DNA from: a virus
Length of the DNA stretch: 64,000 nt
IMG/VR virus record: IMGVR_UViG_3300010371_000030
Location: 32,001 to 96,000 of that record
Direction: 5' to 3' (one strand)
Part shown: positions 1 to 48,245 of the stretch, piece after piece
Layout of the letters: every line of letters begins with the position of its first letter
How positions within the stretch are numbered: the stretch's first letter is position 1
Made by a program: the position numbers and the translations under genes
The notes under the pieces: generated by a model
What the model was told of the DNA's origin: nothing
Seen by the model: the letters and a program-made list of their open reading frames with translations, nothing else
Databases searched by the model: none

Positions 1-656
1 GTGAAGTTGGAGCCCAGAATCGACTTTCCACGGCCCGTGGTACCCATGATGAGTCCCACCTCGCCCTTCCGGCCGCCACCGCCCAACGCCTTGTCGAGGC
101 GAGCGATGCCGGTGGGGATGACCCTGAACTCGTCGGGGTGTTCCTTCTCATACTTGCGAGCGGCCTGTCGCTCGCCAAACTCCTCACTCCATCGAATGTG
201 CGTCCAAGTACGCTCCACGGAGACACCCCGGGAGACGCCCGCCAGCGCCTTGTCCGCGGCGTCGAGGTCATTCTTGGACAGCGCCTCCGCTCCGCGCTCC
301 ATGGCCAGTTGTAGCGTGACGTACCGAACAAACTTGGTCAGTTGTTCGAGCGCCGCTTTGGGGCCTGCCGGCTTGGTCTTCAGGAGGCGATGGACGAAGG
401 TGAGATGTAGCGCACGCTCCTCATCCTTCTTGAAGTCGGTCCGAGCCCGAGCGATGATGAGCTTGGCGTTTGGACGCTCCCGGTACTTGGCCCACGTCTC
501 GGCTGTCACCTTCCATAGCCAAGCACGCTCCTTGGTCCCGAAGTGGTGCGCACTACAGATGCGCGACGCCGTGCGCAGGTACGAATCGTCACGAAGACAC
601 TGCCCCAAGACAGCATCTTCAAACTCGGCATCGAACGTCGCTTCAGGCTCACTCAT
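1..656 (-). CDS. dnaB: DnaB-like replicative helicase, N-terminal part (runs off the left edge)
   Basis: Not in the ORF track; translated by hand from ATG at 656 (ATGA overlap with upstream stop): MSEPEATFDAEFEDAVLGQCL...VIPTGIARLDKALGGGGRKGEVGLIMGTTGRGKS. The IPTG..LD..LGG motif plus Walker A is typical of DnaB/RecA-fold helicases; lies directly after a DnaC-like gene. Confidence 0.85.
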   Translation of the reverse strand, partial: MSEPEATFDAEFEDAVLGQCLRDDSYLRTASRICSAHHFGTKERAWLWKVTAETWAKYRERPNAKLIIARARTDFKKDEERALHLTFVHRLLKTKPAGPKAALEQLTKFVRYVTLQLAMERGAEALSKNDLDAADKALAGVSRGVSVERTWTHIRWSEEFGERQAARKYEKEHPDEFRVIPTGIARLDKALGGGGRKGEVGLIMGTTGRGKSILGSNF

Positions 657-1327
657 TGGATGCCCAGTTCCTTCTTCATCCTGGCCTTGGCCGCCTTGCG
701 GAAGTCGCCCGCCTCCAGAGGCACCACTGTGTACTTCCCCTCCAGCATCGACTCGATGCTCGACCCATACATCTTGGTCAGAGCGGCATACGACAGATTG
801 GTGGCGAGGAGAACAGGATCGCCATCGTCATACCGACGCTTGAGAAGCAACTCCAACTGCGTCGTCAGCCACGAGTCCGCCTTGTAGTGCTCCTTGCCTA
901 GCTCGTCAATGGCCACGAAGTCCGAGTCCAGCAAGAACGCCAAGCGCCGATCAGAGTCCGGGCTGTGGAAGCCTCGCTTGATGTCGGCATCCAGTTGTGC
1001 CAGCGTGGTGTAGTAGGCCGTGCGCCCTCGCCGCAGGGCCTGTGTGAGCACGAACGACATGAAGATGGTCTTGCCCGCTCCGTTGTCACCGCTGAACAGC
1101 AGCGAGTAGCCACGGACCATCGCCACCTTCATTCGAGCCGTGTACTTCAACACACACGCATCGAAGGCAGCCCGATTGTACTTGATGTCGCCACTCCCGA
1201 CGTTCCAGAACGTCTTGGGGATACACGCTTCATAGCATCGCGTGTAATACAGCGCTCGTGTATCGTCGTCACCGAAGCGCTCCGCCATGGACGCTTGGAA
1301 GATGGAGACTTGTTCCGGCGTTCTCAT
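653..1327 (-). CDS. DnaC/IstB-like AAA+ ATPase, helicase loader
   Basis: Walker A LLFSGDNGAGKT, Walker B FVAIDELG, LKRRYD...VLLATNL; sits between initiator and helicase. Confidence 0.88.
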   Translation of the reverse strand: MRTPEQVSIFQASMAERFGDDDTRALYYTRCYEACIPKTFWNVGSGDIKYNRAAFDACVLKYTARMKVAMVRGYSLLFSGDNGAGKTIFMSFVLTQALRRGRTAYYTTLAQLDADIKRGFHSPDSDRRLAFLLDSDFVAIDELGKEHYKADSWLTTQLELLLKRRYDDGDPVLLATNLSYAALTKMYGSSIESMLEGKYTVVPLEAGDFRKAAKARMKKELGIQ

Positions 1328-2802
1328 GGCGTGAACAACACCTCCGCGACAAACTCCGCCATCTCTTTGGCCTTACCAGCTGCCATGAACACCTTCGTTC
1401 CTTTGGCCAGCAGTTCTGCGTTGTGCTGTAGAGTCAGCAGATACCTGTCGTTGTACGCTTGCGTCTTGAAGCCGCCCTGTTCCAACGTCTTCCGCAACTC
1501 CGGATGGAGTTGCCCCATAGCCGTGTAGCTGTTGCCCGCCGGTGGCTTCGGGCTTTCTGCCGACACGGCGGCCGACGTCGGCGCCGGGGCGGACATGGAC
1601 GAGCACGCTACGCGGTCGATGTTGGCAGGAGACTTCAGGAAGCTAAGCGGCGGCAGAACCATGTCACGTTGTGCGAAGTTGCCGATGTTGGCGTCCCAGT
1701 ACTGGAGAAGCTGGCGTGGTGTGACGCCCTTCCGAAGGCACATGATGCCCGCCTCTTCAGCGTATCGTCGCTCCTCGGCAGAGACGTTGTACGTGCTGAC
1801 CAGCTTGCGACGCCGCTCCGCCTCGCGCCGATATCGTGTGTAGATGCGGCTGAACTCGGTCGCAATCTTGTCCACGAGAGCTTGGCGTGACTTGTCGCTC
1901 TTGGGTCTGTCGAGAATGGCCAGGAACAGCGGATGTCTCCGGGAGCCGGGGTCAAAGGTGAGCACCGGGTCCTCATACCTATCCAGCTGTACCCAATCAA
2001 TAGTACCGGGAACGCGCCCTTGAATCTTTTGTGCTGTGGCGTGGTTCTTGCCGTTGGCAGCGCGCGCCTCGCTTCGCTCGGCTCTAAGCCTCTGTCGATC
2101 CGCTCCGATCCTTTCGACCATAGAAAGGGATCCGATCTTAGGCCCAGCAGCAAGAGGCTCCTTGTAGGCACCTTCGGACACGAATTTGACACGCTCTCCA
2201 TCGCCATCAAAGGCGATCTTGGTGGCAGCAAGAATGCTTTGTACACAGGCGGCCTGGAAGTCGGTCGACATCGCCGAAACTCCAGCGCCGATGGTCATCG
2301 AAAGGGCTTGCTGGGAAAGTCCGACTGGACCCCTGGGAAAGTCCGAATCCTGGCCTGGGAAAGTCCGACTGAAGCCCTGGGAAAGTCCGACTGACACAGT
2401 AAACGTGTCGGTTCCGACGTGAGTCACGCGAGGCTCCGCCCTGTCGAGGGCTGCGACGGCGACGTCTGCGAGACGCGCGAAATGGTGCGCGCGAGCATTG
2501 ATCAGAGCACGACGCTCGATGATGACGCGCGTCGGCCGACCGCCCCCGACGGTGTCAAATGAGATGTAGCCCTTGAGATGGAGCTCACGGAGAACTTCGT
2601 TGCTCCGGCGTTCAGAATACTTGAGCAGCTTGGCGAGTTTGCCACGACCAGAAGCCAGCTCATCATCCGTCGCGACGATGAGACGCATCCAAACGGCGAA
2701 TCCTTCGCTGGTCAGCTCATCAAAGGCAGTAGAGATGCGGGCGGGCCCTACTCCGGGGTGCGAGACTGGCGTTGCCTTCTGCCGTCTTACGATTGGATCC
2801 AT
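1324..2802 (-). CDS. Phage replication initiator (lambda O-like position, N-terminal winged HTH)
   Basis: HTH-like LAKLLKYSERRSNEVLRELHLKGYI; internal iteron array; precedes loader and helicase. Start set at MDPIV (2802, GAAGGA upstream) rather than 2943 because a terminator-like hairpin lies at 2867-2908. Confidence 0.7.
   Translation of the reverse strand: MDPIVRRQKATPVSHPGVGPARISTAFDELTSEGFAVWMRLIVATDDELASGRGKLAKLLKYSERRSNEVLRELHLKGYISFDTVGGGRPTRVIIERRALINARAHHFARLADVAVAALDRAEPRVTHVGTDTFTVSVGLSQGFSRTFPGQDSDFPRGPVGLSQQALSMTIGAGVSAMSTDFQAACVQSILAATKIAFDGDGERVKFVSEGAYKEPLAAGPKIGSLSMVERIGADRQRLRAERSEARAANGKNHATAQKIQGRVPGTIDWVQLDRYEDPVLTFDPGSRRHPLFLAILDRPKSDKSRQALVDKIATEFSRIYTRYRREAERRRKLVSTYNVSAEERRYAEEAGIMCLRKGVTPRQLLQYWDANIGNFAQRDMVLPPLSFLKSPANIDRVACSSMSAPAPTSAAVSAESPKPPAGNSYTAMGQLHPELRKTLEQGGFKTQAYNDRYLLTLQHNAELLAKGTKVFMAAGKAKEMAEFVAEVLFTP
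2311..2390. repeat. Iteron array 1: four copies of CTGGGAAAGTCCGA at 22-bp period, probable replication origin
   Basis: Copies start at 2311, 2333, 2355 and 2377, inside the initiator gene as in lambda ori. Confidence 0.85.
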
Positions 2803-2866
2803 CGTTTGGATTCCTTCCATTGTGCCCACGTCCGTCTGGGTCGGAAACCGCTGTATCCCTCTGCTT

Positions 2867-2908
2867 AAAAGCAAACGGCCGACATCCCGTTGGAGGATTG
2901 TCGGCCGT
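2867..2908 (-). terminator. Intrinsic terminator-like hairpin upstream of the initiator
   Basis: 10-bp stem ACGGCCGACA (2875-2884)/TGTCGGCCGT (2899-2908), followed on the minus strand by TTGCTTTT. Confidence 0.65.
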
Positions 2909-3035
2909 CTCTGCTCACGAAGCAAGCGCCCGAGCGCGCCCACCGTCCGCCGCTCGTCCGTCCCTACGTCAAGCAGCGTAGGGAGAAGCCTAACCGGCGA
3001 ACGTCCGGAGCGAAAGCGTTTTTTCGCCCAGTCGG

Positions 3036-4526
3036 CTAATTCCTGACTTCGACAAGAAACGCTGGCTCAGACTGGTACGCTTCCAACCGAGCTTGGGAGT
3101 GCTCCTCCAAGTAATGGTTGGTTTCGTCCATAAAGTCGATGAACAAGGCTACACGCTTGCCCTCGGCCATCGTCAGGTTACGCTGTCGCTGGATGGCTCT
3201 CTTGATATCCCTGCCACCTTCCGCGTTGATGACACACTCGACGGCCGGGATGTCCACGCCCTCGCCCAGGACTGTGCCAATAAGCACGTTGAACTCACCA
3301 GACAGCATACGCTCGATGAGCGCGCGGCGTTTATCCTTCCGCTCCCGCCCCGTGATCTTCTCGTTGGGCACACCCACGGAGTCGAGCCATCGACGAAGCG
3401 TGTTAATGTGCTCCAACTCACGCGCGAGGATGAGCACCTTCATGCCCATATCCACACTCGCCTTCCGGGCGAGCCGAGCGATCATGCTATTGCGCTTGTC
3501 GTTGTTCGTAAGACACATCGAGCGCATCATATCGCTCCACCCCGCAGTCTTGAAGCCGGTCGGTGTGGTAATGCGATACATCTTGACGTTCTGGCGCATC
3601 AGGTAGCCAGCTTCAATCAAGTCCGACATGGACAAGTCGGTTCTGACGGGCCCAAACACACCCTTGAGCCAGATGATGCCGCGCTCCGCTTCCTTCACAT
3701 CGTCCAGGAAGACGGTGGCAGAGAGCGCGACCTTGAACATGGCATCGAAGTCGTATGGAATCTTGTACCACTCGCCCTCGCCCCGGATGTGGTGCGCTTC
3801 GTCGCAGATGAACACGTCCCGCGTGTGAATCAGTTCCTTGTAACGTGGATCCATCGGGCGTCCATTCTTCTTGCCTGGGTCCGAACGTTTGCCGCGCCAA
3901 CGCGCGAGCGATTGAAGCATCGCCACGATGAAGAAGCCATCCTTGTACTCGGAGTCCCCAATGTATCCAATGTCGAGTCCGGGCAAGGACTCCCGCAGGG
4001 AGGCAACCGTCTGCTCCAACAGCATCTGGCTCGGCACGCCGAACACCCCGGGGCGCCCGATTCGACGGATGACTTCAGCCGCTGTCTTGGTCTTGCCCGA
4101 GCGGATGGGCATCTTGAGAATGCCCAGTCCTGGCATCTGGCAATTGAAGATGGAGTCGACCGCCGCCAGCTGGTAGGGACGCAACTGGATGTCTGGATTC
4201 CACGCGATGTCCACGCGTTCGTGGTGGGCATATCGCTCATTCACGACCTTGTAGGGCAGCTTCATCCGCTTGAGCTCTCTGGCGATGTCGATGGCCAGGC
4301 CTGCGGGCGCGAAGTACCCTTCTGGCTCTGCGTACTGAAGCAGATGCTCCTTGCCGTCCCATCGTTTGGCCCGGAAGGCGGGTGAGAAGTGCGAGCCCGC
4401 GATCTTGTAGCTGGTCAATCTTCCAATGGCTCGTGTCACCTTGAGCGAGGCGCCCGAGATGACCACGTGACGATTGGTGACCCGAAGGGTGATCATGGCG
4501 CCGTACGATACCTGGCGCCGTGTCAA
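3036..4526 (-). CDS. Superfamily 2 DNA helicase (UvsW/XPB-like)
   Basis: Q-motif LRPYQ, motif I MPIRSGKT, DEAHH, LSAT, LGEGVDIP, IQRQR. Start may be at 4496. Confidence 0.9.
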   Translation of the reverse strand: MTRRQVSYGAMITLRVTNRHVVISGASLKVTRAIGRLTSYKIAGSHFSPAFRAKRWDGKEHLLQYAEPEGYFAPAGLAIDIARELKRMKLPYKVVNERYAHHERVDIAWNPDIQLRPYQLAAVDSIFNCQMPGLGILKMPIRSGKTKTAAEVIRRIGRPGVFGVPSQMLLEQTVASLRESLPGLDIGYIGDSEYKDGFFIVAMLQSLARWRGKRSDPGKKNGRPMDPRYKELIHTRDVFICDEAHHIRGEGEWYKIPYDFDAMFKVALSATVFLDDVKEAERGIIWLKGVFGPVRTDLSMSDLIEAGYLMRQNVKMYRITTPTGFKTAGWSDMMRSMCLTNNDKRNSMIARLARKASVDMGMKVLILARELEHINTLRRWLDSVGVPNEKITGRERKDKRRALIERMLSGEFNVLIGTVLGEGVDIPAVECVINAEGGRDIKRAIQRQRNLTMAEGKRVALFIDFMDETNHYLEEHSQARLEAYQSEPAFLVEVRN

Positions 4527-5785: not shown

Positions 5786-8700
5786 TCAGGTGTAGGACAG
5801 CAGGTTACAGACAAGCGAAGTGTTGCTGCCGCTGAAGGTAGTAGTCACGAACGTGGACGTGACACCGCTGTTCGAAGCACGTCCGATGATCGTAGAAGAC
5901 ACCCCATCTGAAGCGTCAAAGTTGATGGCCGAATAAGTAGTGTTGTTCCAGTAAATGAAGCCATTCATGATCATGTGTTGCCGCCCGTTAAGCGTAGAGG
6001 TGTGCCCGGTGAGGTTGATCACCGGGTTTCCGTCGGTCAGCTGGGTGCACTCGATGCGGAAGTCATTCACGAACAAGCGATTGCACTCGTCCCCATAGAT
6101 GACCGGACAATGGTTCTGCCCCATCCATCGCAGATAGAGACCACGGATGGCCACGCTGTCGCTCGATGAAGGAACATAGATGAAGGCGAGCGAACCAGGC
6201 CCCGCAGAAGCCGCGTTGGGCGAGGCAGGACCGTTGGAGCAGTTGAGCAACTGGCAGCTATTGCCCAGACGGACAACTCCATCGGTGCAAGACACAGCGC
6301 CGTAGCCTCCGCCTCCGCCGCGCGCTTCCAGCATCACGCCGTCCAGCTGAACGCAATCGTCCAAGTACAGGCCATACTGCCATCGATTGGAACCGTCGCC
6401 GCCAGCGCCGAAGTCGATGTGTACGTCGCTGTGCTTGGTCACAGGGCTGATGAACGCCACTTGGTAGGTGGAAAGGACTCCGACGGGCGATCCCAGGTTG
6501 CCGACCTTGAAACGGTGGCCGCGCGTCTTGTTCATGGCGATCATCGCCGGGAAGCCCGCCGCCAGGCTGTCGTTGCTGGTCGTACGCGTCAGACCGTTGT
6601 AGTCCACCTGGATGTTGTTGAACGTGCACGAGGCGACGTTGTTACCAACGCAGTACAGCGTCGGGCCGTTGTGGATGTTGATGCCCGAGCCCGTGGTGTA
6701 GAAAACGTACAGTCCATCCACGTGCATGATACCCGTCTGGCCGTCGTCGCCAAAGCGGATCAGCGGGTTTTGGGCTCCAGTCGGACGGGCCGCCGCGCTT
6801 CCGATGAGCACCAAGTTGTTTTTCCACGTGAACTTGCCGCCGTTCGCCGGGGTGGCCCAGATGAACTTCGGGTCTGCCAGCGTATGCGGCGACGACAAAT
6901 CCTGTCCATCGGCTACAAAGATGCAGTCTTCCACAGTCCCCGTGCACCCCGGCGCGTAGAGCGCTTGCCCCTCGGCCGTGAAGATGTAGCAGTTTCGCAG
7001 GTGGATGTCGGCCCCGTTTCGAGCGCTGATGACGGGCGAGTACACGCCCGGCGTGGCGAGAAACACGCAGTTGTCGAAGGTGTACTTGTGAGTGCCGTTG
7101 AGAAACACGGCAGGCACGTCCGCCGAATTGACCCAGAAGATGCAGTTGCGGAAGGTCACAGGCGTGATGATCTCATCGCCAATCGTCGGACCGCCCGTCA
7201 AGTCCGACCTGAATGCCGCGGTGGCAGACAGCGATGAGGCGTCGGGCCCATAGATGACCACGTTCTCGATGGTGCCGAACGACAGGTTGTTACCGCCCGT
7301 AGCATGGGCGATGCCGAGCGATTCGGAGTTGGGCGCGTTGTCTCCGGTCTGTGGCTTGATGATGCCGTTGCGGAGATGATACGGCTGAAGGCGGAGGACA
7401 TTGTGATCCAGCAAGCCGACGTAGCCCGCCCGGATGCCGAAGTCTTCCATGATCACGTTGTTGCCGTTGACAGGATCGCCCAACGCAATCGAGCCGGTGC
7501 TGGTCGGGTCAGCATCGAGATAGCACCGCATGAACGTGCCACGGTAGATGGCAGAGCCCGTGACAGGTCCGCTCGTCGTGATCCACGTCCGGACGGAGGG
7601 ATCGGCGCCGGATGGATCGGACACCTCGCCCAGCACGAACGATTGATTGGCCCCCGTATCGCCGCCTGGAGCGATCATGTACTTGTTTGCCGGATTGGCA
7701 ACACGCTTGAGGTAGTACAGCCCCGAAGTCTGGAACTGAGTGGCGAATTCCGTATTGGAGTAGTCGCCGATGAAACCAGAGCCTTGGTCTCCGAACGTGG
7801 CCGTGACGCTCCGGGCGCGGCGGAGTTGCGTGTCAGGCCCTTTCAACAGGAACGTCTGGAGAGTGTCGGTGGACGGATTGAACGTCCCGTCCGTCACGTT
7901 GCCCAGACCACCCGCGGGCTGCGCCGCCATGGGCTTCCTGGGAGTGAACGCCGTCATGTCCACGCCCAGACGCGAGACGCCCGAGGGGATTGCGGTGGAC
8001 GCCAGAACATCGACCACCTGCTGGAAGCCTTCTTGGACCGTTCCGGCCGTGATCCACTTGTACGTGGTGAGCAGAATCTGGCTGGCATCCTCGAACGTCT
8101 TGAGGACTCTCTGGTTGGAGTTGTCGAAGCTGACTGGGGTGTTCCCGGTGCCGACTCCGAGCACGGTGCCGAGGAAGCACACCGTGGGCGTGAACTGTAG
8201 ATTGATCGTTTTGGTGATGATCGGACCTTCCAGGCACACCGTGTAGTCGGCTGCGTTGGTGTCGACGCTGTTCTGGCCCAGATTGCCGGCGGTGATGATG
8301 TAGTTGTGCGTCCCGTCCCACTGGCACGTCTGGGACTCGATTGCGATGGCCGCCGTCGTGGCCTCCTGCGCCGGAACGTTCATCCACACTTGGAACGTTC
8401 GGCCAGCATACGACGTGCCTGACTCCACCACGGCGTCGACCACGATCTTGATCGTGCCATTGCCCAGGTCGGTGATGCTCGTGGGAGCGCCGGAGCGCCC
8501 GATCTGGTCGATCATCCCGCGATACTGCGGCCTGCCCGTGCGCGGATTGATGGTGATCTCGTTTGGAATCTGCGTGTGCGTCAGACCGACATAGTACAGG
8601 ACCCCCAGGTTGTTCTCGAAGAACATCTGCTGTCCTCCGATGGCCTGGGTGATGTCCATGATGTGGCCCTCGCCGTCCGTCGCGAGGCTCGTGCCCGTCA

Positions 8701-8890: not shown

Positions 8891-11335
8891 TCAGTCTCCC
8901 GGATTGATGTCGATGAAGTCGGTCGTCATCGGGTTGAGGAACATCTCCACCTCGGACAGCTCCATCGTTCCGCCCGAGTAGTGGCCAACGGCCATCGTGC
9001 CGTGGTCCAGAGTCGAATCTGTAGCCGAGATCACCAAGTCTGCCTCCCAAAACACCTGTAGGTTGTTCTGTACGCTTCCCGGAAGCGTCGGCGTGACCGT
9101 GATTCGGAAGGTATAGAAGATGTTGGCAACCAACAACTCCGTGCCATGTACGTTGTGCGGCGGTCCGGGATAGTACGTCCCCAACGTCGTGGCGACGCCG
9201 GCCGACAGCGCCTTGAGCGTGATGCTATTGTTGGCGATGTCGATCTCCATCCGATAGGCGTCTGCTCCGCCAGGCACATCCGAGCGGTACACGTCCATGT
9301 AGTACACGCCTGTGCCTCGGATTCGGAACGTGGCCGTGAGATCAGACCAGTCGTCGGAGATGTTCACACCGTTGTTCGTGTACGTCTCGGTGTCCTCGTC
9401 AATCACCGTGTCGAGCAGGTGAAGCATCTGCCCGGACACCGTCGAGGTGCCCGATTGATCGTGCCACTGCGTCTTAATGTTGTCAGTCGGGAACAGGTCG
9501 CTGAACGTGACGTAATCCACCTCCACGCGCTCGCCGCACGGCCGCGTGAGCTTGAGGATGTGACGGATCATGTCATAGTCCAGCGTGCCGTTGTCGACGA
9601 TACGAACGGCATACGTCTGCGAGTCCGGACCTTCCCCGGGACTAGAGAGCAGCCACGGGTCGATTCCCAGATGGTCCTCGCCAAGCGCCGTCTCGCCCAG
9701 GATCCACCGATACCAGAACCAGTTGAGCACCCGAACCTGGGTGCCCGTGATCATACGCAGGATGTCCTCGATGATGTCTTCCACGCCGCGCTGCTTCCAG
9801 AAGGTCACGGACACGCTGATCAGACGGCGAAGCGAGTCCGGATCCAGCTTGGAAGTGATCGGGTTGTATCTGTCAGTCCATCCAACGATGTTCTTGACGT
9901 ATACCAGCAGTTGATCGGGCACGGCGTCCAGATTCCAGATGTTCGGGATCTCCAACGCCAGCTGCGTAGTCTGCTCCCACATCTGCTGCGGACCGCCGAA
10001 CAAACGCTGAATGAACTGCCCTCCATTCGCTTGATCCTCGTCACGGATGCTCTGAAGGATGAAGCGATACATGTCCAGAACTTGCGCCGGAGCCGGGAGC
10101 GGCGACGCCGTGAATCCGAGCATGGCCACCATATACGGCTGTGCGAGCAAGTTGCCCACCAGATCACGGATCGTCGCGCCGTTGATCGTCAGCTGATACA
10201 GCTCGCCCTCGGTCTGGTCGGACGTTGAGAGGATGATCGTGTCCGACTCCACTTGCATGATCTTGGTGGTCGTCAGTCCGTTGTCCCACGTGAAGTTGGA
10301 CACGTCCAGGGACAACAGCTTGGAGTCGGTCGCGATGGGCTCGCTGAAGTAGATGGAGACCGTGTTCGCATCGGTCGCGATGACCATCTTGACGAACGGC
10401 TTGACCCCCACGCCATAGAACGCGGCCGCATCCTTTGACACCGGGTTGCCAAAGGAAGTGATCAGGGAGCCCGAGGATGAACCGTACCCAAAGACGGGCT
10501 GCGCAATCACCTCCGTCCACCAGCCCTCGGCCGTCCCGGCAGGGTCGTACACGATGAACTCGAACCACCCCGGACCTTCGGGCAGGTAGAACAACGCCGT
10601 GTTGCCGTTGCTAGGCAATACATCGTTCCAAGTCCCGGGAGCAGGGGGCGAGCTATCCTGCCAGATGACTACGGGCGGACCGCCTACCGGCCTGTACTGG
10701 ACGATGAAGTTGGGCGCGAACGCGTTCTGGTACTTGGCCTGGATTTGATAGCACTGCCCGTATCCGGCATTGTACTGCTGGAAGATGCCGCCCTGTTTGC
10801 CCGATACAGTCGTCTGTGCCTGGATGTAGTTGAACGTCCCATCGAAGCCGGTCAGGAGCGTGGCGAAGCCCGCAATGGACCAGTACGTGCCAATCGTGCC
10901 CACCTGGGACATGTCGCTGTCCAGGAACGCGTCGGCGCCGATGAGAAGCTGCTCGCTGTTCACCGTGAGCAGATACGCCGCGCTGTCGAGCATCGGAGAC
11001 ACGATCACGATCACGTACTTGGTCGTGGTGCCAGCCGAGGAAGGAACCTCCACGGCCAGCACGGCAGGCGTCGACAACTCCGCATCGTTGAACCCGTACA
11101 TGTTCCAGTTGTCCGGGTTGACGAGCGCCGCATTGTTATCGACGGGCGCAGTGAAGTCGACGCGAATGCGCGTGTTCGACGTGGGCTTGGCTCGCTTGAT
11201 CCGAGTGATCTTCTGTAGATCGCCCGTCATCGTCAGCGACAGCGCCATCGTCTCGGACGATGACATATGTTCGGTGCCTTCGCCGAACAGCTTCAGCTTG
11301 AGCGCGACGGTCGCCGATGACGAGATGAAGGCCAT
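8891..11335 (-). CDS. Baseplate wedge / tail protein I-like with Ig-like N-terminal domains
   Basis: LDAVPDQLLVY...VGW...RRLISVSVTFWKQRG resembles P2 gpI-type tail proteins; Ig-like strands (IRVDFTAPV, VSIYFSEPI). Confidence 0.7.
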   Translation of the reverse strand: MAFISSSATVALKLKLFGEGTEHMSSSETMALSLTMTGDLQKITRIKRAKPTSNTRIRVDFTAPVDNNAALVNPDNWNMYGFNDAELSTPAVLAVEVPSSAGTTTKYVIVIVSPMLDSAAYLLTVNSEQLLIGADAFLDSDMSQVGTIGTYWSIAGFATLLTGFDGTFNYIQAQTTVSGKQGGIFQQYNAGYGQCYQIQAKYQNAFAPNFIVQYRPVGGPPVVIWQDSSPPAPGTWNDVLPSNGNTALFYLPEGPGWFEFIVYDPAGTAEGWWTEVIAQPVFGYGSSSGSLITSFGNPVSKDAAAFYGVGVKPFVKMVIATDANTVSIYFSEPIATDSKLLSLDVSNFTWDNGLTTTKIMQVESDTIILSTSDQTEGELYQLTINGATIRDLVGNLLAQPYMVAMLGFTASPLPAPAQVLDMYRFILQSIRDEDQANGGQFIQRLFGGPQQMWEQTTQLALEIPNIWNLDAVPDQLLVYVKNIVGWTDRYNPITSKLDPDSLRRLISVSVTFWKQRGVEDIIEDILRMITGTQVRVLNWFWYRWILGETALGEDHLGIDPWLLSSPGEGPDSQTYAVRIVDNGTLDYDMIRHILKLTRPCGERVEVDYVTFSDLFPTDNIKTQWHDQSGTSTVSGQMLHLLDTVIDEDTETYTNNGVNISDDWSDLTATFRIRGTGVYYMDVYRSDVPGGADAYRMEIDIANNSITLKALSAGVATTLGTYYPGPPHNVHGTELLVANIFYTFRITVTPTLPGSVQNNLQVFWEADLVISATDSTLDHGTMAVGHYSGGTMELSEVEMFLNPMTTDFIDINPGD

Positions 11336-30685: not shown

Positions 30686-31891
30686 CTACAGGTTGAGACC
30701 GATGTTGTGCCCGTAGGCCACGGCGTCGACTTCCTCCAGCTGGACGTCGACCTTGGTGGTGATGGCGTACTGGTTCACGCCCTTGAAGATGTCGCGATCC
30801 TTCTCGATGCGGACGTCGCGACCGATGCCGATGATCATGTTGTCCTTGTGGGTCAGCATGATCGTCGGGTTGGACTGGTAGGTGACCTTGACGGTCGCCC
30901 CGCTGCTGATGCCGCCGCCGACGCGCGTGATGCCGCCGCCGCTGTAGTCCACCGTGTAGTCGGTGTTCTCCACGTACGGCGTGACGGGCGTGTTCCCGAG
31001 CGTCACGGGGGTGACGACCACGTTGGTCACGGGCCCGTGGAGGAGCGACGTCTTGGTGGTGCCGGTGAGGACGATGTGCTCCACGACGATGGGCTGGAGC
31101 GCCCAGAGCGGGACGGGCACCGCCTTGATCCCGAACGGGCCCTGGAGCTGATCGGGCGTCTGGGTGGCCGCGTCGTCACCGAGCTTGCCGATGCGCGTGG
31201 CCATCTTCTCCTGGAACATCTGCCACAGGTCCGGGCTGAGGAACCAGCGCAGGTCCTGGAGGCGCCGACGGAACTTGATCGGCAGAGCGCGCATGATCTT
31301 GCCGAACACGCTCAGACCGATGTTCTGCCCCTGGAGGTCCACGACGTGGCCGGTCATGCCCAGCTTCTGCCAACCGTCGACCAGCGCCACGAAGGTGTCC
31401 TTGATGTAGCGCGTGCTGTCGCCGCCGTCGATGAGGTCGGACTCCAGGCGAGCGGGACCGAGCTTGTTGCCGGTGATGTACTGCTCCTCCAGGTCGTTGC
31501 CCGTCTGGGTCGCCATGAGGCGCACGATGGTGTCTTCGACATCGCGCCCCTCGATGTTGATCTCCGCGAAGATGTCGCTGATCTCGAAAGGCGTCATGAC
31601 CTCGTGCGGCTGGAGGGTCACCTTGGAGGTGGTGACGCCGCGACGGCGGCGCGGATCGGTCGCCTCCGACTTGGCCATGGCCGCGCGCTTCCCGACGCCG
31701 ATCTTGTCGATCTCCAACGTCTCGTTGGTGAAGCGCACCACGCGAGCGTTGTTGCGAAGGATGGTGATGTCGATGACGTAATCGATGAACTTGTTCGACT
31801 GCGCCGGGTTGAGCTTGCCTGCCGTGGCCAGCGCGTCGGTGGTGACCACCGCCTTGTTGACCAACTCTTCGTTCGTGACGCCCGTGCTCAT
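30686..31891 (-). CDS. Major capsid protein (HK97 fold, PBSX XkdG/P2-like)
   Basis: GKLNPAQSNKFID, EIDKIGVG, EINIEG, NDLEEQYITG, NMIIGIGRDVRIEKDRDI, EEVDAV. Confidence 0.92.
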   Translation of the reverse strand: MSTGVTNEELVNKAVVTTDALATAGKLNPAQSNKFIDYVIDITILRNNARVVRFTNETLEIDKIGVGKRAAMAKSEATDPRRRRGVTTSKVTLQPHEVMTPFEISDIFAEINIEGRDVEDTIVRLMATQTGNDLEEQYITGNKLGPARLESDLIDGGDSTRYIKDTFVALVDGWQKLGMTGHVVDLQGQNIGLSVFGKIMRALPIKFRRRLQDLRWFLSPDLWQMFQEKMATRIGKLGDDAATQTPDQLQGPFGIKAVPVPLWALQPIVVEHIVLTGTTKTSLLHGPVTNVVVTPVTLGNTPVTPYVENTDYTVDYSGGGITRVGGGISSGATVKVTYQSNPTIMLTHKDNMIIGIGRDVRIEKDRDIFKGVNQYAITTKVDVQLEEVDAVAYGHNIGLNL

Positions 31892-31946
31892 GATCGGTCT
31901 CTCCTCTTGGTCTATCGTCCTGTGTCCGCTGCCCCTGGTCGCCTGG

Positions 31947-32906
31947 TTACAGGACGCCGTTCCAGAGGGACTTCTTCACCGGCGTGGCGCCGCCCTCGCC
32001 TCCGCCCTCGGAGTTGCCGGCGGGGCGCGCCTTCTTGACGTCGGCCACCTCGCCTTCGATCTTGGCGAAGCGCGGCTCCAGCCCCTTGGCGACCGCCGCG
32101 GCGATGTCCTCGACGGTGAGGCTCTTGGACACCTCCATGCCGCCCGGAGCCGGCTTGATCTCGCTGGGGGTCGACACCGAGGTGGCATTGGGCAAGTTCT
32201 TGCCCGGACCGCCCGCGATGGGGTGGTCGCTGTCCGGGGCGACGTCGCCCACCAGCTCGTCCAGGAGCCCCTTGAGCGCCTTGAGCTTGCCCACGCGCTC
32301 GGGCGTCATGTGCTTGGCCTTGACGATGAGCGCAGCGAGACCATCCATGGTGAGCGGCGCGTCGCCCTCGTCGCCCTTCTTGGTCTTGGCCTCTTTGGTG
32401 TCCTTGTTCTTGGCGCCGTCCACGTCGGTCGCCGCGCCGCCCGGCCCGGAGCCCGCGTTGGGCTTCTTGTTCGGCTTGGGCGCGGTCTCCTCGTCCGTCT
32501 CGTTGGGCGACACGAGCTTCATCGTGAGGTCCACGCCGGACTTCTTGGCCTTCTCCTCCATGTCCTTCATCTGCTCGTCGGACATGCCCGCGGCCTTGAG
32601 GAACGCCTTGAGCGTCGTGCCCTTGGACTTGTCGACGTTGACCGTGTCCGGAGGCGAGACGCCGGCCAGCGCCGCGACGTTGGCGACGATGGCGGTGACC
32701 TCCTTGAGGATGTCGACCGTTGCATCGCCACCGCCTGCCGCCTTGACCACGACCTTCTCCGTGCCCTGTTCCTGGGTGCCCATCTCTGCCTCCGTCTGGC
32801 CCTTGTCTTTGGTGACGAGCCATTCCTGTTCATTGGCTGGCTCGCCAACCAGGCTCACCTCGCCCACCGCGAGCTTCAAGAATCGCCTGGCTGCTTTCTC
32901 GCTCAT
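31947..32906 (-). CDS. Capsid scaffolding protein with N-terminal protease-like EVSLVGEPAN strand
   Basis: Low-complexity charged/coiled protein directly upstream of the capsid gene; possible internal start at 32783 with GGAGG. Confidence 0.75.
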   Translation of the reverse strand: MSEKAARRFLKLAVGEVSLVGEPANEQEWLVTKDKGQTEAEMGTQEQGTEKVVVKAAGGGDATVDILKEVTAIVANVAALAGVSPPDTVNVDKSKGTTLKAFLKAAGMSDEQMKDMEEKAKKSGVDLTMKLVSPNETDEETAPKPNKKPNAGSGPGGAATDVDGAKNKDTKEAKTKKGDEGDAPLTMDGLAALIVKAKHMTPERVGKLKALKGLLDELVGDVAPDSDHPIAGGPGKNLPNATSVSTPSEIKPAPGGMEVSKSLTVEDIAAAVAKGLEPRFAKIEGEVADVKKARPAGNSEGGGEGGATPVKKSLWNGVL

Positions 32907-36763: not shown

Positions 36764-38244
36764 CAGATCAACCCCGGCTCTTTGTCCCTTGTTCGACGTC
36801 GCTTGCCGAGCTTACTAGCCAGCACGGCCAAGTCAAAAGCGTCGAACAGATCATCGTGTTGATGATTTGGGAAGAGCACGAGGTGTTCGATCAGGAGCAA
36901 CTGTGACTCCCTGAAAAACATCTTCTTTTCCTCGAACAGCGAGGACAGCTTCCAAGCCCGAGTCACCTTGTCCTTGTCGGTGATAACCGGGCGAAGCCTG
37001 ATGTCTGGGTCGGTGTCCTTGAGCGTTTGGTATTGGGCCGCTTGATACGCGTTGGTCTCAATCGCGATACGGATTGGGTCCCAACGCTTCGCATACTCCT
37101 TGATCTTGGCCGTTTGGGCGCCGAACCTCAGTTGGTCCTCGTAATGGTCCAAGACATAGAACGCAGTGCGGTCCTTGTTGACGCCAATCACCACGATGGC
37201 GAACTTGTCGTTGGTTTCATCTTCTCCAATCGCCAAGTCGACGCCCATGAACACCTGAAGTCCCTGGGCGTCAGGCCATTCCGTGTCGGGAACGCGCTGG
37301 CAATCGTCGTACTGGAAGATTTCACCCTTCATGGCGTCAGTATCATTCTGATACTGGGCGTTGAAGATGATCAGGCCGCTCTTCTCTCGCTTCGCCGTGA
37401 ACCACTTGGGCGGATACTTCTCGGGCCACGGCGACCGACCGAGTTCATCCAGCGCCTTGATGATATGCACGTGGTTCTTGAGCTCGTGAGAGATCAAGTG
37501 CCCATAGTAGTCCAGGTGGTGATAACGCGTCCCAAGCCGATGACGCTCACCGCGGTGCGGCACCTTCGGGTCAGGCGGCTCCAGCGTCGGGTCCAGCGTG
37601 GTATACGCCCAAGACACCAGCTTGTCGCGCTGGTGCTGCGTACGGCTGTTCTCCTCATCGACAATGTCATCCTCGATGATGACATCGTAATGCTTGGACA
37701 CGATGGTTCCGTCAGCCCCGACGCACGTGATGGAAGCCTCCTTGTTAGGGCTCCGCCGGGGCAGGACCTCAATCTCACGATTGTCCCACTTGGTGACCTT
37801 GCGAGCATCGTAGTACTGGCCGAACACCTCGGCCAGACGTTCGTTCTGCTCAAAGTGTTTCTTGATACCACGCAAGAATCCCTCCGCGTTCTGCGCCGTC
37901 TTGGAGGCGATCAGGATACGCAGGTTTGGATCCTTGAGAAGTAGATGAATACACTTCGTTTCCGTACAGAGCGTGGACTTGCCCGCTCCTCGGAAGATCA
38001 GCTGTAGGTTGTCGGGGTGGGCGAACTGCCACTTGAGCATGGCCACGTGGAACGGCATCACCGTCAGGCCAAGCACCGCCGCCGCCAGGATATCAATGCG
38101 ATTGTTCTGGATGACTTGCCGTCGAATCCACTCGTTGTTCATCGAGCGGCAACGGCGGTAATACTCCACCAGTTCGCCGTGGTCGGCTACTGCCAGCGCG
38201 CTGGCAGATAGCATGCCCGGCGAGGCGGCCTTGGCCGGGACCAT
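36763..38244 (-). CDS. terL: Terminase large subunit
   Basis: RGAGKST Walker A, IIEDDIVD Walker B, GTRYH, FNAQYQN, MGVDLA, IETNAYQ, HDDLFDA. Confidence 0.95.
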   Translation of the reverse strand: MVPAKAASPGMLSASALAVADHGELVEYYRRCRSMNNEWIRRQVIQNNRIDILAAAVLGLTVMPFHVAMLKWQFAHPDNLQLIFRGAGKSTLCTETKCIHLLLKDPNLRILIASKTAQNAEGFLRGIKKHFEQNERLAEVFGQYYDARKVTKWDNREIEVLPRRSPNKEASITCVGADGTIVSKHYDVIIEDDIVDEENSRTQHQRDKLVSWAYTTLDPTLEPPDPKVPHRGERHRLGTRYHHLDYYGHLISHELKNHVHIIKALDELGRSPWPEKYPPKWFTAKREKSGLIIFNAQYQNDTDAMKGEIFQYDDCQRVPDTEWPDAQGLQVFMGVDLAIGEDETNDKFAIVVIGVNKDRTAFYVLDHYEDQLRFGAQTAKIKEYAKRWDPIRIAIETNAYQAAQYQTLKDTDPDIRLRPVITDKDKVTRAWKLSSLFEEKKMFFRESQLLLIEHLVLFPNHQHDDLFDAFDLAVLASKLGKRRRTRDKEPGLI

Positions 38245-42038: not shown

Positions 42039-42362
42039 TCAGTGCTTCTGGTCATCGGGCGGCATGGGCTCGCCTTCGGCCGCCGCCTCGTTGGCGACTT
42101 CACCGATGTCTCTGGCCATGCGCGCGGCGGCCGACTTCCACTTGGCTTGCTCTTGGAGGCTCATGATGAGCCACACATTCATGATGATCTCGCGATCAGC
42201 CGCCGTCGTCGCGCCGCTGGCGATGATCAGCGCCTCCACGCGATTCACGACCGCATCGATCCACTCCGCCGTCGTGCGCTTCTCTTCACGCGTCGACAGC
42301 GCCATCTGCGCCTCCTGAATCATCGTCCAAATGTTGGCCGCGTCATCCATGTTCAGCTTCAT
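42039..42362 (-). CDS. Hypothetical protein
   Basis: 107 aa with GAGGAG RBS. Confidence 0.6.
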   Translation of the reverse strand: MKLNMDDAANIWTMIQEAQMALSTREEKRTTAEWIDAVVNRVEALIIASGATTAADREIIMNVWLIMSLQEQAKWKSAAARMARDIGEVANEAAAEGEPMPPDDQKH

Positions 42363-43132
42363 CAGATCTGCTCCTCTCGTACACGTCTCATCCAGCGTTC
42401 TCTATCGTCATCGTCATACTCTGGATACATCTTCAGCAGTCGGCAAAGACACACGCCGCGCGCCTCCAGGTCGCGCCTCATCGGACCGTTGTTCCACGCC
42501 AAGATACAGATGTTGCGCACCATCTCAGTCGCGCCTTGAGGAGTGATCATGTTCCTGGACATGGCGTAGTCGACCAGTCGATGGTGCGGTGGTCCGTGGT
42601 TCGTTCGTACCGTGATGTGCTCCATCGAGCGCCCGTGCTCCAGATAGCGATGTGGCGTCGTCGTGCCCCAAGTCCATTTGATGTCGTCGTGGACGAAGCC
42701 AAACTCCAGCAGACGAGTCCTGACGTACTCCCTGAATCCACGCACCATCAACACTGCATCCCAAAGCTGAAGCGGCGCCGCTCTCAGGCTAGTCTCGATG
42801 GCATCCAGTTGCTCGCCACGCACCCTGATCTCTTTGTCGACCGAACGCACCAACCCATCGACAGTTCGATTGACAATCTCCAACGTGCGTGACGTCGCCG
42901 GTCGGCAATCCGGGGCGAGCCCGAGTGCGCGTCTGACCTTGGTCATCTTGACGTTGGCAGTCTGCGAGATGAGCTTGAGATCCCGCATGACACGGGCTCG
43001 TGCCTCCATCGACGGCTCACGCGACTTGTAAGGCTTCGCCCGCTCGAAAGTACGAATGAGATCAGTTGCCATTATCGTCCTCACGAAGGTCGAATGGTCG
43101 CTGTGGGTTAGTTTCAGGGTCGAACAATCCAT
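42362..43132 (-). CDS. Hypothetical protein
   Basis: 256-aa ORF; start probably at the internal MATDL. Confidence 0.55.
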   Translation of the reverse strand: MDCSTLKLTHSDHSTFVRTIMATDLIRTFERAKPYKSREPSMEARARVMRDLKLISQTANVKMTKVRRALGLAPDCRPATSRTLEIVNRTVDGLVRSVDKEIRVRGEQLDAIETSLRAAPLQLWDAVLMVRGFREYVRTRLLEFGFVHDDIKWTWGTTTPHRYLEHGRSMEHITVRTNHGPPHHRLVDYAMSRNMITPQGATEMVRNICILAWNNGPMRRDLEARGVCLCRLLKMYPEYDDDDRERWMRRVREEQI

Positions 43133-43633
43133 CGTAGTCGCCTCTGTCGATGTCGATGAACTTGTCCTCCCATCCGGAGCGAAGGCGCAACGCGTACTGC
43201 TGGGTGGAGCAGCTCCAGGTGATGGTAATCACCGCCCACTTCCTGCCTTCGTACTCAATCACCGGGAAACCAACCCACATCGGCGTACGCCTCCGGCCGT
43301 TGGATACCGGGGCGCGCCTCGGCTAGCTGGCGCTTGGATCGCTCTTGCCTTGCCGACATGCCGGCGCCGACTCGCTACGCTCGTCTGGAGTAGAGACTTC
43401 GTTACTTTGTAAGATCCCCTATAAGTGCGCACCATATGCCTTGTCTGGACGGCAAGCGTGCCAGAATCTTCCAAGGCAGGTCGCGTCTGCTGCCCCGTAG
43501 GGGCAGCACCCCTTTTGCCGTTGTGCCCTTTCGGCGTCGCCCGGCCTGTCAGATCCAGCACGTATGTAATGCTACAGGGAATTCCACTTTGTGCCCGTCG
43601 GACGTCAAAACCACAAACGGACATGTGGAGCGG

Positions 43634-43713
43634 CTGGGAAAGTCCGACTGGACCCCTGGGAAAGTCCGAATCCTGGCCTGGGAAAGTCCGAATCCTGGCC
43701 TGGGAAAGTCCGA
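43634..43713. repeat. Iteron array 2: four copies of CTGGGAAAGTCCGA at 22-bp period, intergenic
   Basis: Copies start at 43634, 43656, 43678 and 43700; same orientation and largely the same spacers as 2311-2390. Confidence 0.88.
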
Positions 43714-43980
43714 CTGACACAACTTTCGTGTCGCGGAACGATGTGTCTACGCCTTGAGGCGAGGCGGCCGCAGCCCGGACAGGGAGGCGAGCTTGAACGG
43801 CCGGATGGCGCCAGGGCCGGGGCGGCGGCCATTGGGGTTGATCTCTCGGAGCGTCCGAGCCGTGGCCGCAGCGGCTGCCGACTGTTGGAAGTGTCCGTGG
43901 GCGTGGTGACGGCGTGCTTCCTGTTCCATCGTCTCGGCCAAGTCCAGATGGATAGGGATCTGTTTGTCCACGTTCGCCTC

Positions 43981-44865
43981 CTACGCGGTCGGAGCTGCCG
44001 GGATCAGCCCGAGGAGCAGCGAGACGTTCACCTTGTTCCGAGCGGTCCACGCGACGTTTCCGCGTGCGGGGATGACACACTCCGTCGCAGCGGTAGCCCA
44101 ATCCCTCGCCCGGACGGCGGTGGTGAACTTCGGCCACGTGCGCGGGAAGCCCGCGCCGAGAGCCCAAGCCATGGACATGATCGCGCGTTGCGCCGCCTCC
44201 GGCAAGCTCGCCAGGTCCGGGAAGAATCCCAGGAGCACCTCTGCGTCCTGATCGAAGCGCTTGAGGCACTCATTGTCGATGTCGCGATCATCGAGGTACA
44301 GCGCGCCCGGCACGTGGTAGTACGTCGCCAGCTCGCCCTTCTTCATCGAATGGACGCGATTCCACTCGATGGTGATCTGTTCGTCGGTCGCCAACCCTTG
44401 ATCGGTCGGCCGACGCCAGTTGTAGGACATCGCCGCCTGTGCCGTGAGCAGAAGGAAGCCGATGCCCGTGGTGACGTACCCTTCGACATCCAGGTACATC
44501 TCGTGCTCGCGCCCTTCCCACTTTGCGTTCCAGTCCAGCCAGTCGTTACGGACCGCGGGGCACGGGTTGGAAGCGGGCTTGATCGCCAACGCGCGCTCGA
44601 TGGCGGGGCGAACGTCGATGGCCGGGCGGCCGGGCGCGAGGCGTTCCATCGCCCTCTTCAGCTCTTCGCAGCGTTCGATGGCCTCATCGCGCTGCGCCGT
44701 ACGCTCGCCCACGCGCTCTGCGAGGGCCAAGTTGGACCTGACCGCCGCCGCTCGGTCGCTCTCCAGAGTCCTGACCTCTCGTCTCAGCTCCACCACCAGC
44801 TCGGACTCGGCCGGCCGAGGCGAGCGCCTGAGGAAGTCGTGTAGAAAGTTGCGCATGGCTCCCAT
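43981..44865 (-). CDS. GH24-type lysozyme (endolysin candidate) with N-terminal coiled coil
   Basis: WEGREHEMYLDVEGYVTTGIG (E-x8-D-x5-T), LPEAAQRAIMSMAWALG, WPKFTTAVRARDWATAATE, RN. Confidence 0.85.
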   Translation of the reverse strand: MGAMRNFLHDFLRRSPRPAESELVVELRREVRTLESDRAAAVRSNLALAERVGERTAQRDEAIERCEELKRAMERLAPGRPAIDVRPAIERALAIKPASNPCPAVRNDWLDWNAKWEGREHEMYLDVEGYVTTGIGFLLLTAQAAMSYNWRRPTDQGLATDEQITIEWNRVHSMKKGELATYYHVPGALYLDDRDIDNECLKRFDQDAEVLLGFFPDLASLPEAAQRAIMSMAWALGAGFPRTWPKFTTAVRARDWATAATECVIPARGNVAWTARNKVNVSLLLGLIPAAPTA

Positions 44866-46897: not shown

Positions 46898-47467
46898 TTA
46901 GCGCTTTGGGCGCGCTTCGTACGTGGTCTCGCAGTTCAGACGGTTGGCCTTCCGTCTCGCGTCCATCTCGGACATGCCGCTGTCGTACCAATGCCCGCCG
47001 TCTTTGCCGGCGCACCATACGCCCCATCCGCCACGTTCCAGCAGCGGGAACGATTCAGACGGGGCGAACATCGACCAGCAGCGGACGGCGTTCAACGCCT
47101 CTGCCAGCTCGTGCTGCCCGGCGGAGTCGGACGTGTCCCGGGCTGCCCGAGCGTAGATGCCGAGCGCCTTTGCCAGCGCCGTCACCGCCGTGGACACCTC
47201 GCGTCGGACGTCGGCCGCCTCGGTCTCCGTGAGCGGAACGGGCGGCCCAGGCGGCGACTTCGGGCAGCCATCGAAGTGCCCGAGATGCGGCGAAGCCAGA
47301 TGTCGCAGCAGCCACTCCATCGCCGCTTCCAGATCCTCACGTGAAGCCGGAGTCATGGTAATGTACGGCTTGCGTTCGTGTCGCATACTTTGGAGCATGC
47401 TACGAAGGGCTACCAACGTTTGGATGTGCTGACGAATGGCCCGAGGGAAGCGTGTAGTGGCCTTCAT
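46898..47467 (-). CDS. Hypothetical protein
   Basis: 189 aa with GGAGG RBS. Confidence 0.55.
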   Translation of the reverse strand: MKATTRFPRAIRQHIQTLVALRSMLQSMRHERKPYITMTPASREDLEAAMEWLLRHLASPHLGHFDGCPKSPPGPPVPLTETEAADVRREVSTAVTALAKALGIYARAARDTSDSAGQHELAEALNAVRCWSMFAPSESFPLLERGGWGVWCAGKDGGHWYDSGMSEMDARRKANRLNCETTYEARPKR

Positions 47468-47832
47468 CGGTCGCCTCCTTCATCGAAACGACGGCGGCCA
47501 GCGCGGCCAGGCGGCAGCTTGGATTCATCTACCACGATGACACTCGGCCGCAGCCAGCCGTCGCTCTTGCCTCGCGTTCGGATGGAAGCGACACCGTTGG
47601 TCGGCACATCCGCCGGGCGCCAGATCATGCCGCACCCGTGGCACTGGTGAGAGCGGTGCGGAGGGTTGGTCCACCCGTTCGCGGGCTCCGGCGCGTCCAC
47701 GTGCGGAAGGAAGCAGCGCGGGCACTGGAGCAAGATGTCGATGGGACGGCCATACATGTAGACCGTCCGAGCGAGGCAGAGCAGCCCGAGCAGGAGCCCG
47801 AACAGGGCGATGGCGACATGAGGGAAGTTCAC
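47464..47832 (-). CDS. Membrane-anchored Cys/His zinc-ribbon-like protein
   Basis: N-terminal TM, CPRC...H, HRSHQCHGCG..WRPADVPTNGV. Confidence 0.55.
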   Translation of the reverse strand: MNFPHVAIALFGLLLGLLCLARTVYMYGRPIDILLQCPRCFLPHVDAPEPANGWTNPPHRSHQCHGCGMIWRPADVPTNGVASIRTRGKSDGWLRPSVIVVDESKLPPGRAGRRRFDEGGDR

Positions 47833-48245
47833 GGCTTCGTTCCCTTCGGACGCGTCTCCACGACCTTGCCGACGCTGGAGACGACGTAGCCACCCGGCAG
47901 CTGCCACGAGGCGTGATGGAGCGTGTGCCCGACGTCGGTGGTGTCTTCATCCTCGGGCACCTCCAAGTTCAGTACCACCGCCACGCGCTTCGTCGGGCCC
48001 GCGGGCGTCGCCTTCGGCCCCTTGGCGATGGCGGGCGGAGCGTCGATGGCGCCCTTGATGTCGGGGTCCACCTGCCGGTTGTGATGCGCGAGGAGCGCGG
48101 CCGTGGTCGCGCGGAAGCTGGCGTTGCCGTCCACCTTCGCCAGCTCCGTCAGGAACGTCGTCAGACGCGTCCACGCGATGTACGGCAGAAGCTTCGTACC
48201 GATGAGGTTGTAAACGTCGATCACCGTCTTGTTCGATGCTGCCAT
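47829..48245 (-). CDS. Hypothetical protein
   Basis: AAGGAG RBS before ATG at 48245. Confidence 0.55.
   Translation of the reverse strand: MAASNKTVIDVYNLIGTKLLPYIAWTRLTTFLTELAKVDGNASFRATTAALLAHHNRQVDPDIKGAIDAPPAIAKGPKATPAGPTKRVAVVLNLEVPEDEDTTDVGHTLHHASWQLPGGYVVSSVGKVVETRPKGTKP

Follow-up and report, generated by a model that had tools for sequence, protein, structure and literature searches.

The window analysed here is a 64,000-nucleotide stretch (positions 32001-96000) of a 105,832-bp IMG/VR virus record, the genome of an uncultured soil phage of ~106 kb rated by CheckV as 100% complete. The genome has 63% GC, and nearly all of its genes lie on the minus strand. Its genes for a large terminase, portal, capsid, tail sheath, tape measure and baseplate show the phage to be a myovirus. 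Within the window, a set of four direct repeats (array 2) lies in a gap between two small genes, and transcription in this region proceeds from array 2 towards the terminase gene 5.4 kb away. The locus has the following features:

43062..43280, minus strand: 72-aa gene, transcriptionally downstream of array 2, with GGAGG 9 nt before its ATG; ortholog at L064 980-1198
43248..43525, no strand: highly conserved non-coding block that separates array 2 from the 72-aa gene start, with a hairpin at 43488-43508
43281..43746, no strand: non-coding gap of 466 bp holding array 2, between two small minus-strand genes
43634..43721, no strand: array 2, four CTGGGAAAGTCCGA cores with a 22-bp period, followed by CTGACACA
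43716..43732, no strand: inverted repeat directly after array 2, GACAC-N7-GTGTC with the loop AACTTTC
43747..43971, minus strand: 74-aa gene whose stop codon is 25 nt from array 2; ortholog at L064 1668-1895; no family match

The GC3 frame plot shows no frame-specific signal over 43281-43746, indicating that this region is non-coding and that the first-pass annotation was right to place array 2 between genes. The genes neighbouring array 2 have no PHROG or Pfam match, except for a dCMP deaminase gene further on. Scans of the gap around array 2 for Rfam families, tRNAs, sigma-70-like promoters and terminator consensus sequences were all negative, although the promoters of the host may differ. 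The same annotation had described the stretch at about 43390-43620 as AT-rich. Its composition is indeed shifted (56.3% GC, where the genome has 63.3%; 4.7th percentile of windows), but the shift is only modest. Sequence adjoining array 2 has 55-56% GC (5th-10th percentile; genome 63%).

Two arrays and the replication gene cluster

The repeats of array 2 have an exact counterpart inside the gene of a putative replication initiator, where they form array 1. The genes of this second locus follow each other in the order SF2 helicase, initiator, DnaC/IstB-like loader and DnaB-like helicase:

3036..4526, minus strand: gene for an SF2 (ResIII/UvsW-like) DNA helicase, immediately upstream of the initiator gene
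1324..2820, minus strand: initiator (replisome-organizer-like) gene; N-terminal winged helix, disordered linker, conserved C-terminal helical domain
2311..2398, no strand: array 1, within the initiator gene; four identical cores with a 22-bp period, then CTGACACA
2393..2409, no strand: inverted repeat after array 1, GACAC-N7-GTGTC with the loop AGTAAAC
653..1327, minus strand: gene for a DnaC/IstB-like AAA+ helicase loader, overlapping the initiator stop (PF01695 2e-9, phrog_50 8e-22)
1..656, minus strand: 5' part of the gene for a DnaB-like replicative helicase (DnaB_C 3.5e-9, KaiC-type ATPase match 1.4e-14); the whole gene is at 31217-32656 of the genome (G000)

The 14-bp core CTGGGAAAGTCCGA is present in four exact plus-strand copies at 2311, 2333, 2355 and 2377, and in four more at 43634, 43656, 43678 and 43700. 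A direct count thus confirms the exact 22-bp period reported earlier for both arrays, whose cores span 2311-2390 and 43634-43713, respectively. Searching the whole 105,832 bp with up to one mismatch revealed only these eight copies; the chance expectation for an exact 14-mer in the window is ~0.0005. With the trailing CTGACACA included, 83 of 88 nt are identical between the arrays. Spacers 1 and 2 (CTGGACCC and ATCCTGGC) and the trailer are common to both, and all five differences fall in spacer 3, as had been claimed. The distance between the arrays on the record is 41,323 bp, in agreement with the 41 kb from rep given at first, and the other arc would measure 64.5 kb if the genome is circular or permuted.

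The flanks of the two arrays had been considered unrelated. They do not align, but this description missed one shared element located 3' of each array. After five variable bases both arrays resume with CGTGTCG, forming a GACAC-N7-GTGTC inverted repeat whose loops differ between the two loci. Outside this genome, blastn of the array-2 region against GenBank phages gave no match, and the exact two-iteron pattern was found in IMG/VR in no record other than the phage's own.

The open reading frame of the initiator reaches position 2943 (1324-2943, minus strand). Alignments with relatives begin at RRQKATP, which makes the methionine at 2820 or 2802 the probable start. In the AlphaFold model, a confident N-terminal domain (residues 28-101) is followed by a linker that is disordered (103-231) and, at the C-terminus, by a helical domain. 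The N-terminal domain (residues 25-108) is a winged helix, with VIA-align Z-scores of 8-9 against winged helices of MarR, Fur, ORC and TFIIE, as well as against the RepA_N initiators of plasmids and the primosome DnaB of Geobacillus. Array 1 encodes residues ~144-170, that is, a part of the disordered linker, as in lambda O. No family match was obtained in Pfam or PHROG at E-values up to 10, and a profile search of the PDB returned no sequence relative, only the generic winged-helix fold being recovered by structure. The family of this protein comprises 322 clusters at 50% identity; many of the 322 representatives are 260-370 aa long and match the C-terminal domain alone. From the gene context, the fold and the internal iterons, we infer that the protein encoded at 1324..2820 is the initiator.

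Array 1 flanks have 58-67% GC, and judged by the GC of the flanks there is no clear AT-rich unwinding element beside either array. GC skew calculated per 4 kb changes from negative to about zero or positive near genome position ~36000 (window ~4000), close to array 1, with no change of gene strand. We rejected this sign change near 36 kb as evidence for an origin, because skew is uninformative in a genome with almost all of its genes on one strand. A more distant relative (G004) shows the same module-wise pattern wherever its repeat clusters lie, so this pattern may reflect gene content rather than replication.

One of the roles initially proposed for array 2 was copy-number control by titration or handcuffing, similar to P1 incA, in a phage capable of a plasmid-prophage lifestyle. 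Extra iteron sets do control initiation in P1, F and RK2, and near-identical arrays such as these could pair via initiator bridges. As in P1 and plasmids with control iterons, array 2 represents an additional initiator-type iteron set outside the minimal origin. However, incA flanks repA directly and serves plasmid copy control, and plasmid control iterons in general adjoin rep, rather than being 41 kb away. The search for parAB or an integrase, suggested earlier as a check, was run on the whole, CheckV-complete genome and returned no tyrosine or serine recombinase (integrase, resolvase), ParA, ParB or protelomerase (PF00589, PF02195, PF13614, PF00239, PF16684), nor are there partition or lysogeny genes. 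The absence of these genes makes a phage-plasmid copy-control role unlikely. Within the sensitivity of the scan, 185,579 cellular species genomes likewise contained no relative of the initiator. Furthermore, the phage encodes its own helicase and loader, which fits a virulent lifestyle. We therefore regard copy-number control as very unlikely indeed.

Conservation of both arrays in a close relative

An exact-pattern scan of JGI metagenomes yielded two contigs, both from a single sample, Ga0134128. One of them (L063) carries the ortholog of the initiator gene, with 83% nucleotide identity and an 83% identical protein (P0003). The other (L064) carries the ortholog of the array-2 locus, 76% identical over 42103-43975, and retains both small genes on either side of a 469-bp gap. 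The close relative thus has both arrays. Since each lies within matching unique flanks, misassembly of array 2 can be rejected.

Between array 1 and its L063 counterpart, none of the 56 core positions and 11 of the 24 spacer positions have changed (Fisher p = 2e-7); for array 2 and L064, the corresponding numbers are 1/56 and 10/24 (Fisher p = 1e-5). The GACAC-N7-GTGTC repeat has also been kept at both arrays of the close relative, with array-specific loops. Given that cores are kept while spacers have diverged, and that array 1 is coding yet array 2 is not, selection must act on the cores as DNA at both loci. Array 2 is thus old and under selection, as judged from these substitution patterns.

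This result bears on the question of whether array 2 might be a functionless copy produced by ectopic recombination, or whether the repeats might be bound by some DNA-binding protein other than the initiator, both of which we consider improbable. Taken alone, the 83/88 identity, which extends to the spacers, could suggest a very recent copy. However, the array 2 of L064, with its ~76% flank identity, has kept the cores and not the spacers. As orthologous cores are retained while spacers diverge, a neutral duplicate can be rejected.

How, then, could the two arrays of this phage be so similar? In the close relative, the two arrays have unlike spacers. The spacers shared by the arrays studied here therefore point to recent gene conversion between them, rather than to a recent origin of array 2. 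The putative conversion tract ends at CTGACACA, before the array-specific loops, and conversion appears to have altered the linker peptide of the initiator as well (P0002 compared with P0003). When positions 2311-2390 are compared with L063 622-710, conversion or slippage is seen to shift the iteron register relative to the reading frame. As a consequence of this shift in the intragenic array, the linker peptide differs between close relatives (VGLSQGFSRTFPGQDSDFPRGPVGLSQQ versus VGLSQAGVGLSQGKSRTFPGQESDFPRQP). The initiator linker would thus seem to tolerate rewriting by its own DNA signal.

The same alignment drew attention to the sequence next to array 2. The non-coding block at 43248-43525 is 88-97% identical to L064, compared with 65-85% in the coding flanks, and includes a perfect hairpin with a 9-bp stem (43488-43508), followed by CACCCCTTTT on the plus strand. 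The block has no match in Rfam; a promoter or leader, a small RNA and a terminator acting in both directions are possible identities. On the other side of array 2, the alignment with L064 stops at 43975 and resumes at 44655, so that ~680 bp (43976-44654) of a 294-aa gene (43981-44865, minus strand) are absent or replaced in the relative.

Distal iteron clusters in distant relatives

Alignment-based scans of IMG/VR identified syntenic relatives of ~80-116 kb, whose initiators are 32-45% identical to the one studied here; a single-protein scan of viral contigs had found no relative. In these genomes, repeats occupy the same position in the initiator linker, with a sequence that differs by genome:

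G001: iteron CCAAAGTTTA
G002 and G003: iteron CAnnCA(G/C)TTACC
G004: iteron AACCCAATTACCC / GCACTTACCC
G005: iteron TCACACACTTGC

A 53.5-kb relative (L017) showed no clear iteron array in the rep linker and was left out of the comparison. Each genome was then searched with its own iteron motif, which revealed distal clusters in three of them:

G002, 47229-47950: at least 11 copies, in the largest non-coding gap of the variable region
G004, 92481-92844: 9 copies in a 1.76-kb gap
G004, 102439-102924: 6 copies
G005, 6041-8667: at least 12 copies

Co-variation of the two arrays in relatives, which had been proposed as a check, is thus observed: G002, G004 and G005 each have distal clusters of their own iteron. 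In a control with 9-mers, those taken from the rep array find the distal cluster in their own genome only (76, 19 and 10 hits on the diagonal and at most 6 off it). All distal clusters lie in the variable, non-syntenic early region, at different places, and the copies vary in number, orientation and position. Cluster 3 of G004 is positionally the closest to array 2. The spacing of ~41 kb is found in both G000 and G002, but we consider this a coincidence, since on the syntenic map the clusters fall on opposite arcs.

From one genome to another, the genes on either side of the distal clusters are unrelated, which leaves the initiator gene as the sole constant partner of the clusters. The search for a conserved gene beside them was negative, which argues against a dedicated binding protein encoded next to the clusters. 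Bearing on the possibility of a different DNA-binding protein raised above, arrays with a family-specific sequence are found at the same initiator-linker position in every relative compared (L017 having been left out), and nothing else co-varies with them.

Two of the genomes contribute little to this picture or diverge from it. G001, also 100% complete according to CheckV, has no distal cluster. It does have two extra inverted iterons at 67697-67727 (L013 ~10494-10524), ~200 bp downstream of the four direct ones and inside the rep gene. The G003 record ends early; its one iteron-like hit, 140 bp from the contig end, is uninformative.

Several features of the relatives deserve a mention in their own right. 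Their rep arrays fall in the windows of lowest GC in the genome. In G004, the initiator is seemingly split exactly at the iteron-bearing linker (~37780-37910; L014 10200-10330), with iterons shortly before the ATG of a gene that encodes only the C-terminal domain. In the phage studied here, the lowest-GC non-coding island of the genome (50574-51622; 48% GC, genome position ~82917) has no iteron-like sites at up to three mismatches, unlike comparable large gaps in G002 and G004, which do hold distal iteron fields.

The arrangement of distal copies in two relatives raises the possibility that array 2 is a transcriptional operator or roadblock. The initiator bound there could repress a promoter of the downstream unit, which runs from the 72-aa gene through dCMP deaminase to the terminase and structural genes, or it could block read-through from the upstream early region, so that expression would be coupled to the initiator level. 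In G005, several small early genes have inverted iteron pairs with an 8-bp spacer (TCACACACTTGC-N8-inverted copy) 30-80 nt ahead of their start codons. The pairs at 7247-7278, 7790-7821 and 8656-8667 (L074, L081, L075) read TCACACACTTGC-N8-GCAAnTnTGTGA, each followed by CGGAAA, in an operator-like layout; the next ~30 nt are conserved at two of the sites. Cluster 3 of G004 has four sites in a 170-bp gap directly upstream of a gene. Array 2 itself lies between two minus-strand genes and adjoins the unusually conserved non-coding block, a possible promoter or leader. In iteron plasmids, moreover, Rep bound to inverted repeats represses transcription. On the other hand, the layout of array 2 is that of an origin (four direct repeats with two-turn phasing and the inverted repeat of array 1), not that of an inverted operator. 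It is ~350 bp away from the next start codon, with no promoter consensus in between that we could recognize, bearing in mind that the promoters of the host may differ, and the genes beside distal clusters are not conserved between genomes. A primarily transcriptional role for array 2 is thus the main rival explanation and a serious one, though less likely than a role in replication.

Possible role of array 2 and its counterparts in known systems

From the anatomy of the arrays, the selection on their cores, the family-wide co-variation and the gene context, we infer that array 2 serves the phage's own initiator as a second binding array maintained by selection, similar to SPP1 oriR, and that it may act as an auxiliary origin or as a fork barrier. 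We assign this interpretation a probability of roughly 0.6. The central idea of the first-pass annotation, a second iteron set far from rep, gains support from conservation in the close relative and co-variation in distant ones, insofar as sequence comparison can provide it. Of the three functions it had listed, a second origin and an operator are both viable, whereas phage-plasmid copy-number control is not supported, no maintenance genes having been found.

Mechanistically, the N-terminal winged helix of the initiator would bind the 14-bp cores. As the 22-bp period corresponds to two helical turns, the four sites would be on one face of DNA, and each array might nucleate one cooperative nucleoprotein complex. 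Array 2 also has the GACAC-N7-GTGTC repeat seen at array 1 and is thus probably capable of every function of its counterpart. One option is that array 2 recruits the DnaC-like loader and the DnaB-like helicase and thereby serves as an auxiliary origin. Alternatively, a tight initiator complex at array 2 may arrest forks arriving from array 1, as has been proposed for SPP1 oriR in the theta-to-sigma switch. That array 2 reproduces the whole array-1 module, four direct cores with two-turn phasing and the inverted repeat, favours a role in replication over mere binding sites. Against such a role, neither array has a clear unwinding element, GC skew is uninformative, G001 has no distal cluster, and the distal copies of the other relatives differ in number, orientation and position; those in G005 and in cluster 3 of G004, being directly upstream of genes, are more operator-like.

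The first-pass annotation compared the design with lambda and P1; Bacillus phage SPP1 provides a closer precedent: its oriL lies within gene 38, its oriR is distant, and both are bound by gp38 (PMC6316719, PMC3485210). The SPP1 initiator gp38 binds direct repeats at these sites, oriR is located in one of the longest intergenic regions, and the two are 12-13 kb apart on the circle (PMC6316719, PMC3485210). It has been proposed that gp38 bound at oriR stalls replication forks and triggers the switch from theta to sigma replication (PMC6316719, PMC3485210). The phage studied here resembles SPP1 in having repeats inside the initiator coding sequence (four cores at 2311-2390 in 1324-2820, minus strand) and the same repeats, similarly organised, in a distant non-coding region (array 2 in its 466-bp gap). 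It also has genes for the initiator, helicase loader and DnaB-type helicase in a row, in the same order as 38-39-40. SPP1 is virulent, as this phage appears to be, and its distal site has been proposed to be either a second origin or a fork barrier.

The differences are also considerable. Our initiator has no detectable sequence similarity to gp38 or to any Pfam family, and the apparent lack of homology to either SPP1 gp38 or lambda O counts against the interpretation of array 2 as an oriR-like site. The loader of this phage is of the AAA+ DnaC/IstB type, which the SPP1 loader gp39 is not known to be. Unlike in SPP1, no clear AT-rich unwinding element is found beside either array. The phage is a myovirus with a 106-kb genome of 63% GC and arrays 41 kb apart, compared with ~12-13 kb in SPP1, and in its relatives distal sites number up to ~15 and occur in both orientations. 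The layout is therefore analogous to SPP1 oriL/oriR, with no demonstrable homology of the initiator. We consider this phage a well-supported new example of a known, SPP1-type design and not a new system.

Other known systems match less well. Lambda gene O likewise has four phased iterons in the linker between an N-terminal DNA-binding domain and a C-terminal domain that interacts with the loader, and the loader gene is next to it. However, the single array of lambda is followed by an AT-rich segment, which has no clear equivalent here, and the phage studied here shows no match to the O family in Pfam and has its own DnaB-like helicase. In satellite phage P4 (ori and crr, bound by the alpha protein) and in plasmid R6K (gamma, alpha and beta origins), one initiator uses the same short repeats at two separated loci, the distal one acting in cis. 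Our phage shares with them the presence of the same repeats at two separated loci of one replicon. However, the P4 initiator is a primase-helicase, the loci in P4 and R6K are separated by ~4-5 kb, and both P4 loci are required; here we see a winged-helix organizer with a separate loader and helicase, and a distance of 41 kb. Thus, the system belongs neither with the lambda O-family origins nor with P1 incA-type control loci or P4 ori/crr.

For ~30 years, ideas on the role of SPP1 oriR have rested on a single phage. The same two-locus design is now seen in large, high-GC soil phages with an unrelated initiator family (no Pfam model, ~320 clusters). To this our analysis adds an ortholog test, co-variation across multiple genomes and evidence for gene conversion between the arrays. 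Co-variation of intragenic and distal repeats across at least four iteron types indicates that the distal site is selected rather than accidental, and provides a comparative data set. The variation among relatives, from direct arrays to inverted pairs in front of genes, could help to separate the roles of origin, fork barrier and operator. For genome annotation, it follows that a distal array should not be called 'the origin' before the initiator gene has been checked for the same repeats. More speculatively, in this family of ~100-kb phages the initiator might double as a genome-wide regulator. Distal iteron fields could then serve as operators, or as programmed sites of fork or transcription arrest that time the early-to-late and theta-to-sigma transitions, while gene conversion between arrays would repeatedly rewrite the initiator linker.
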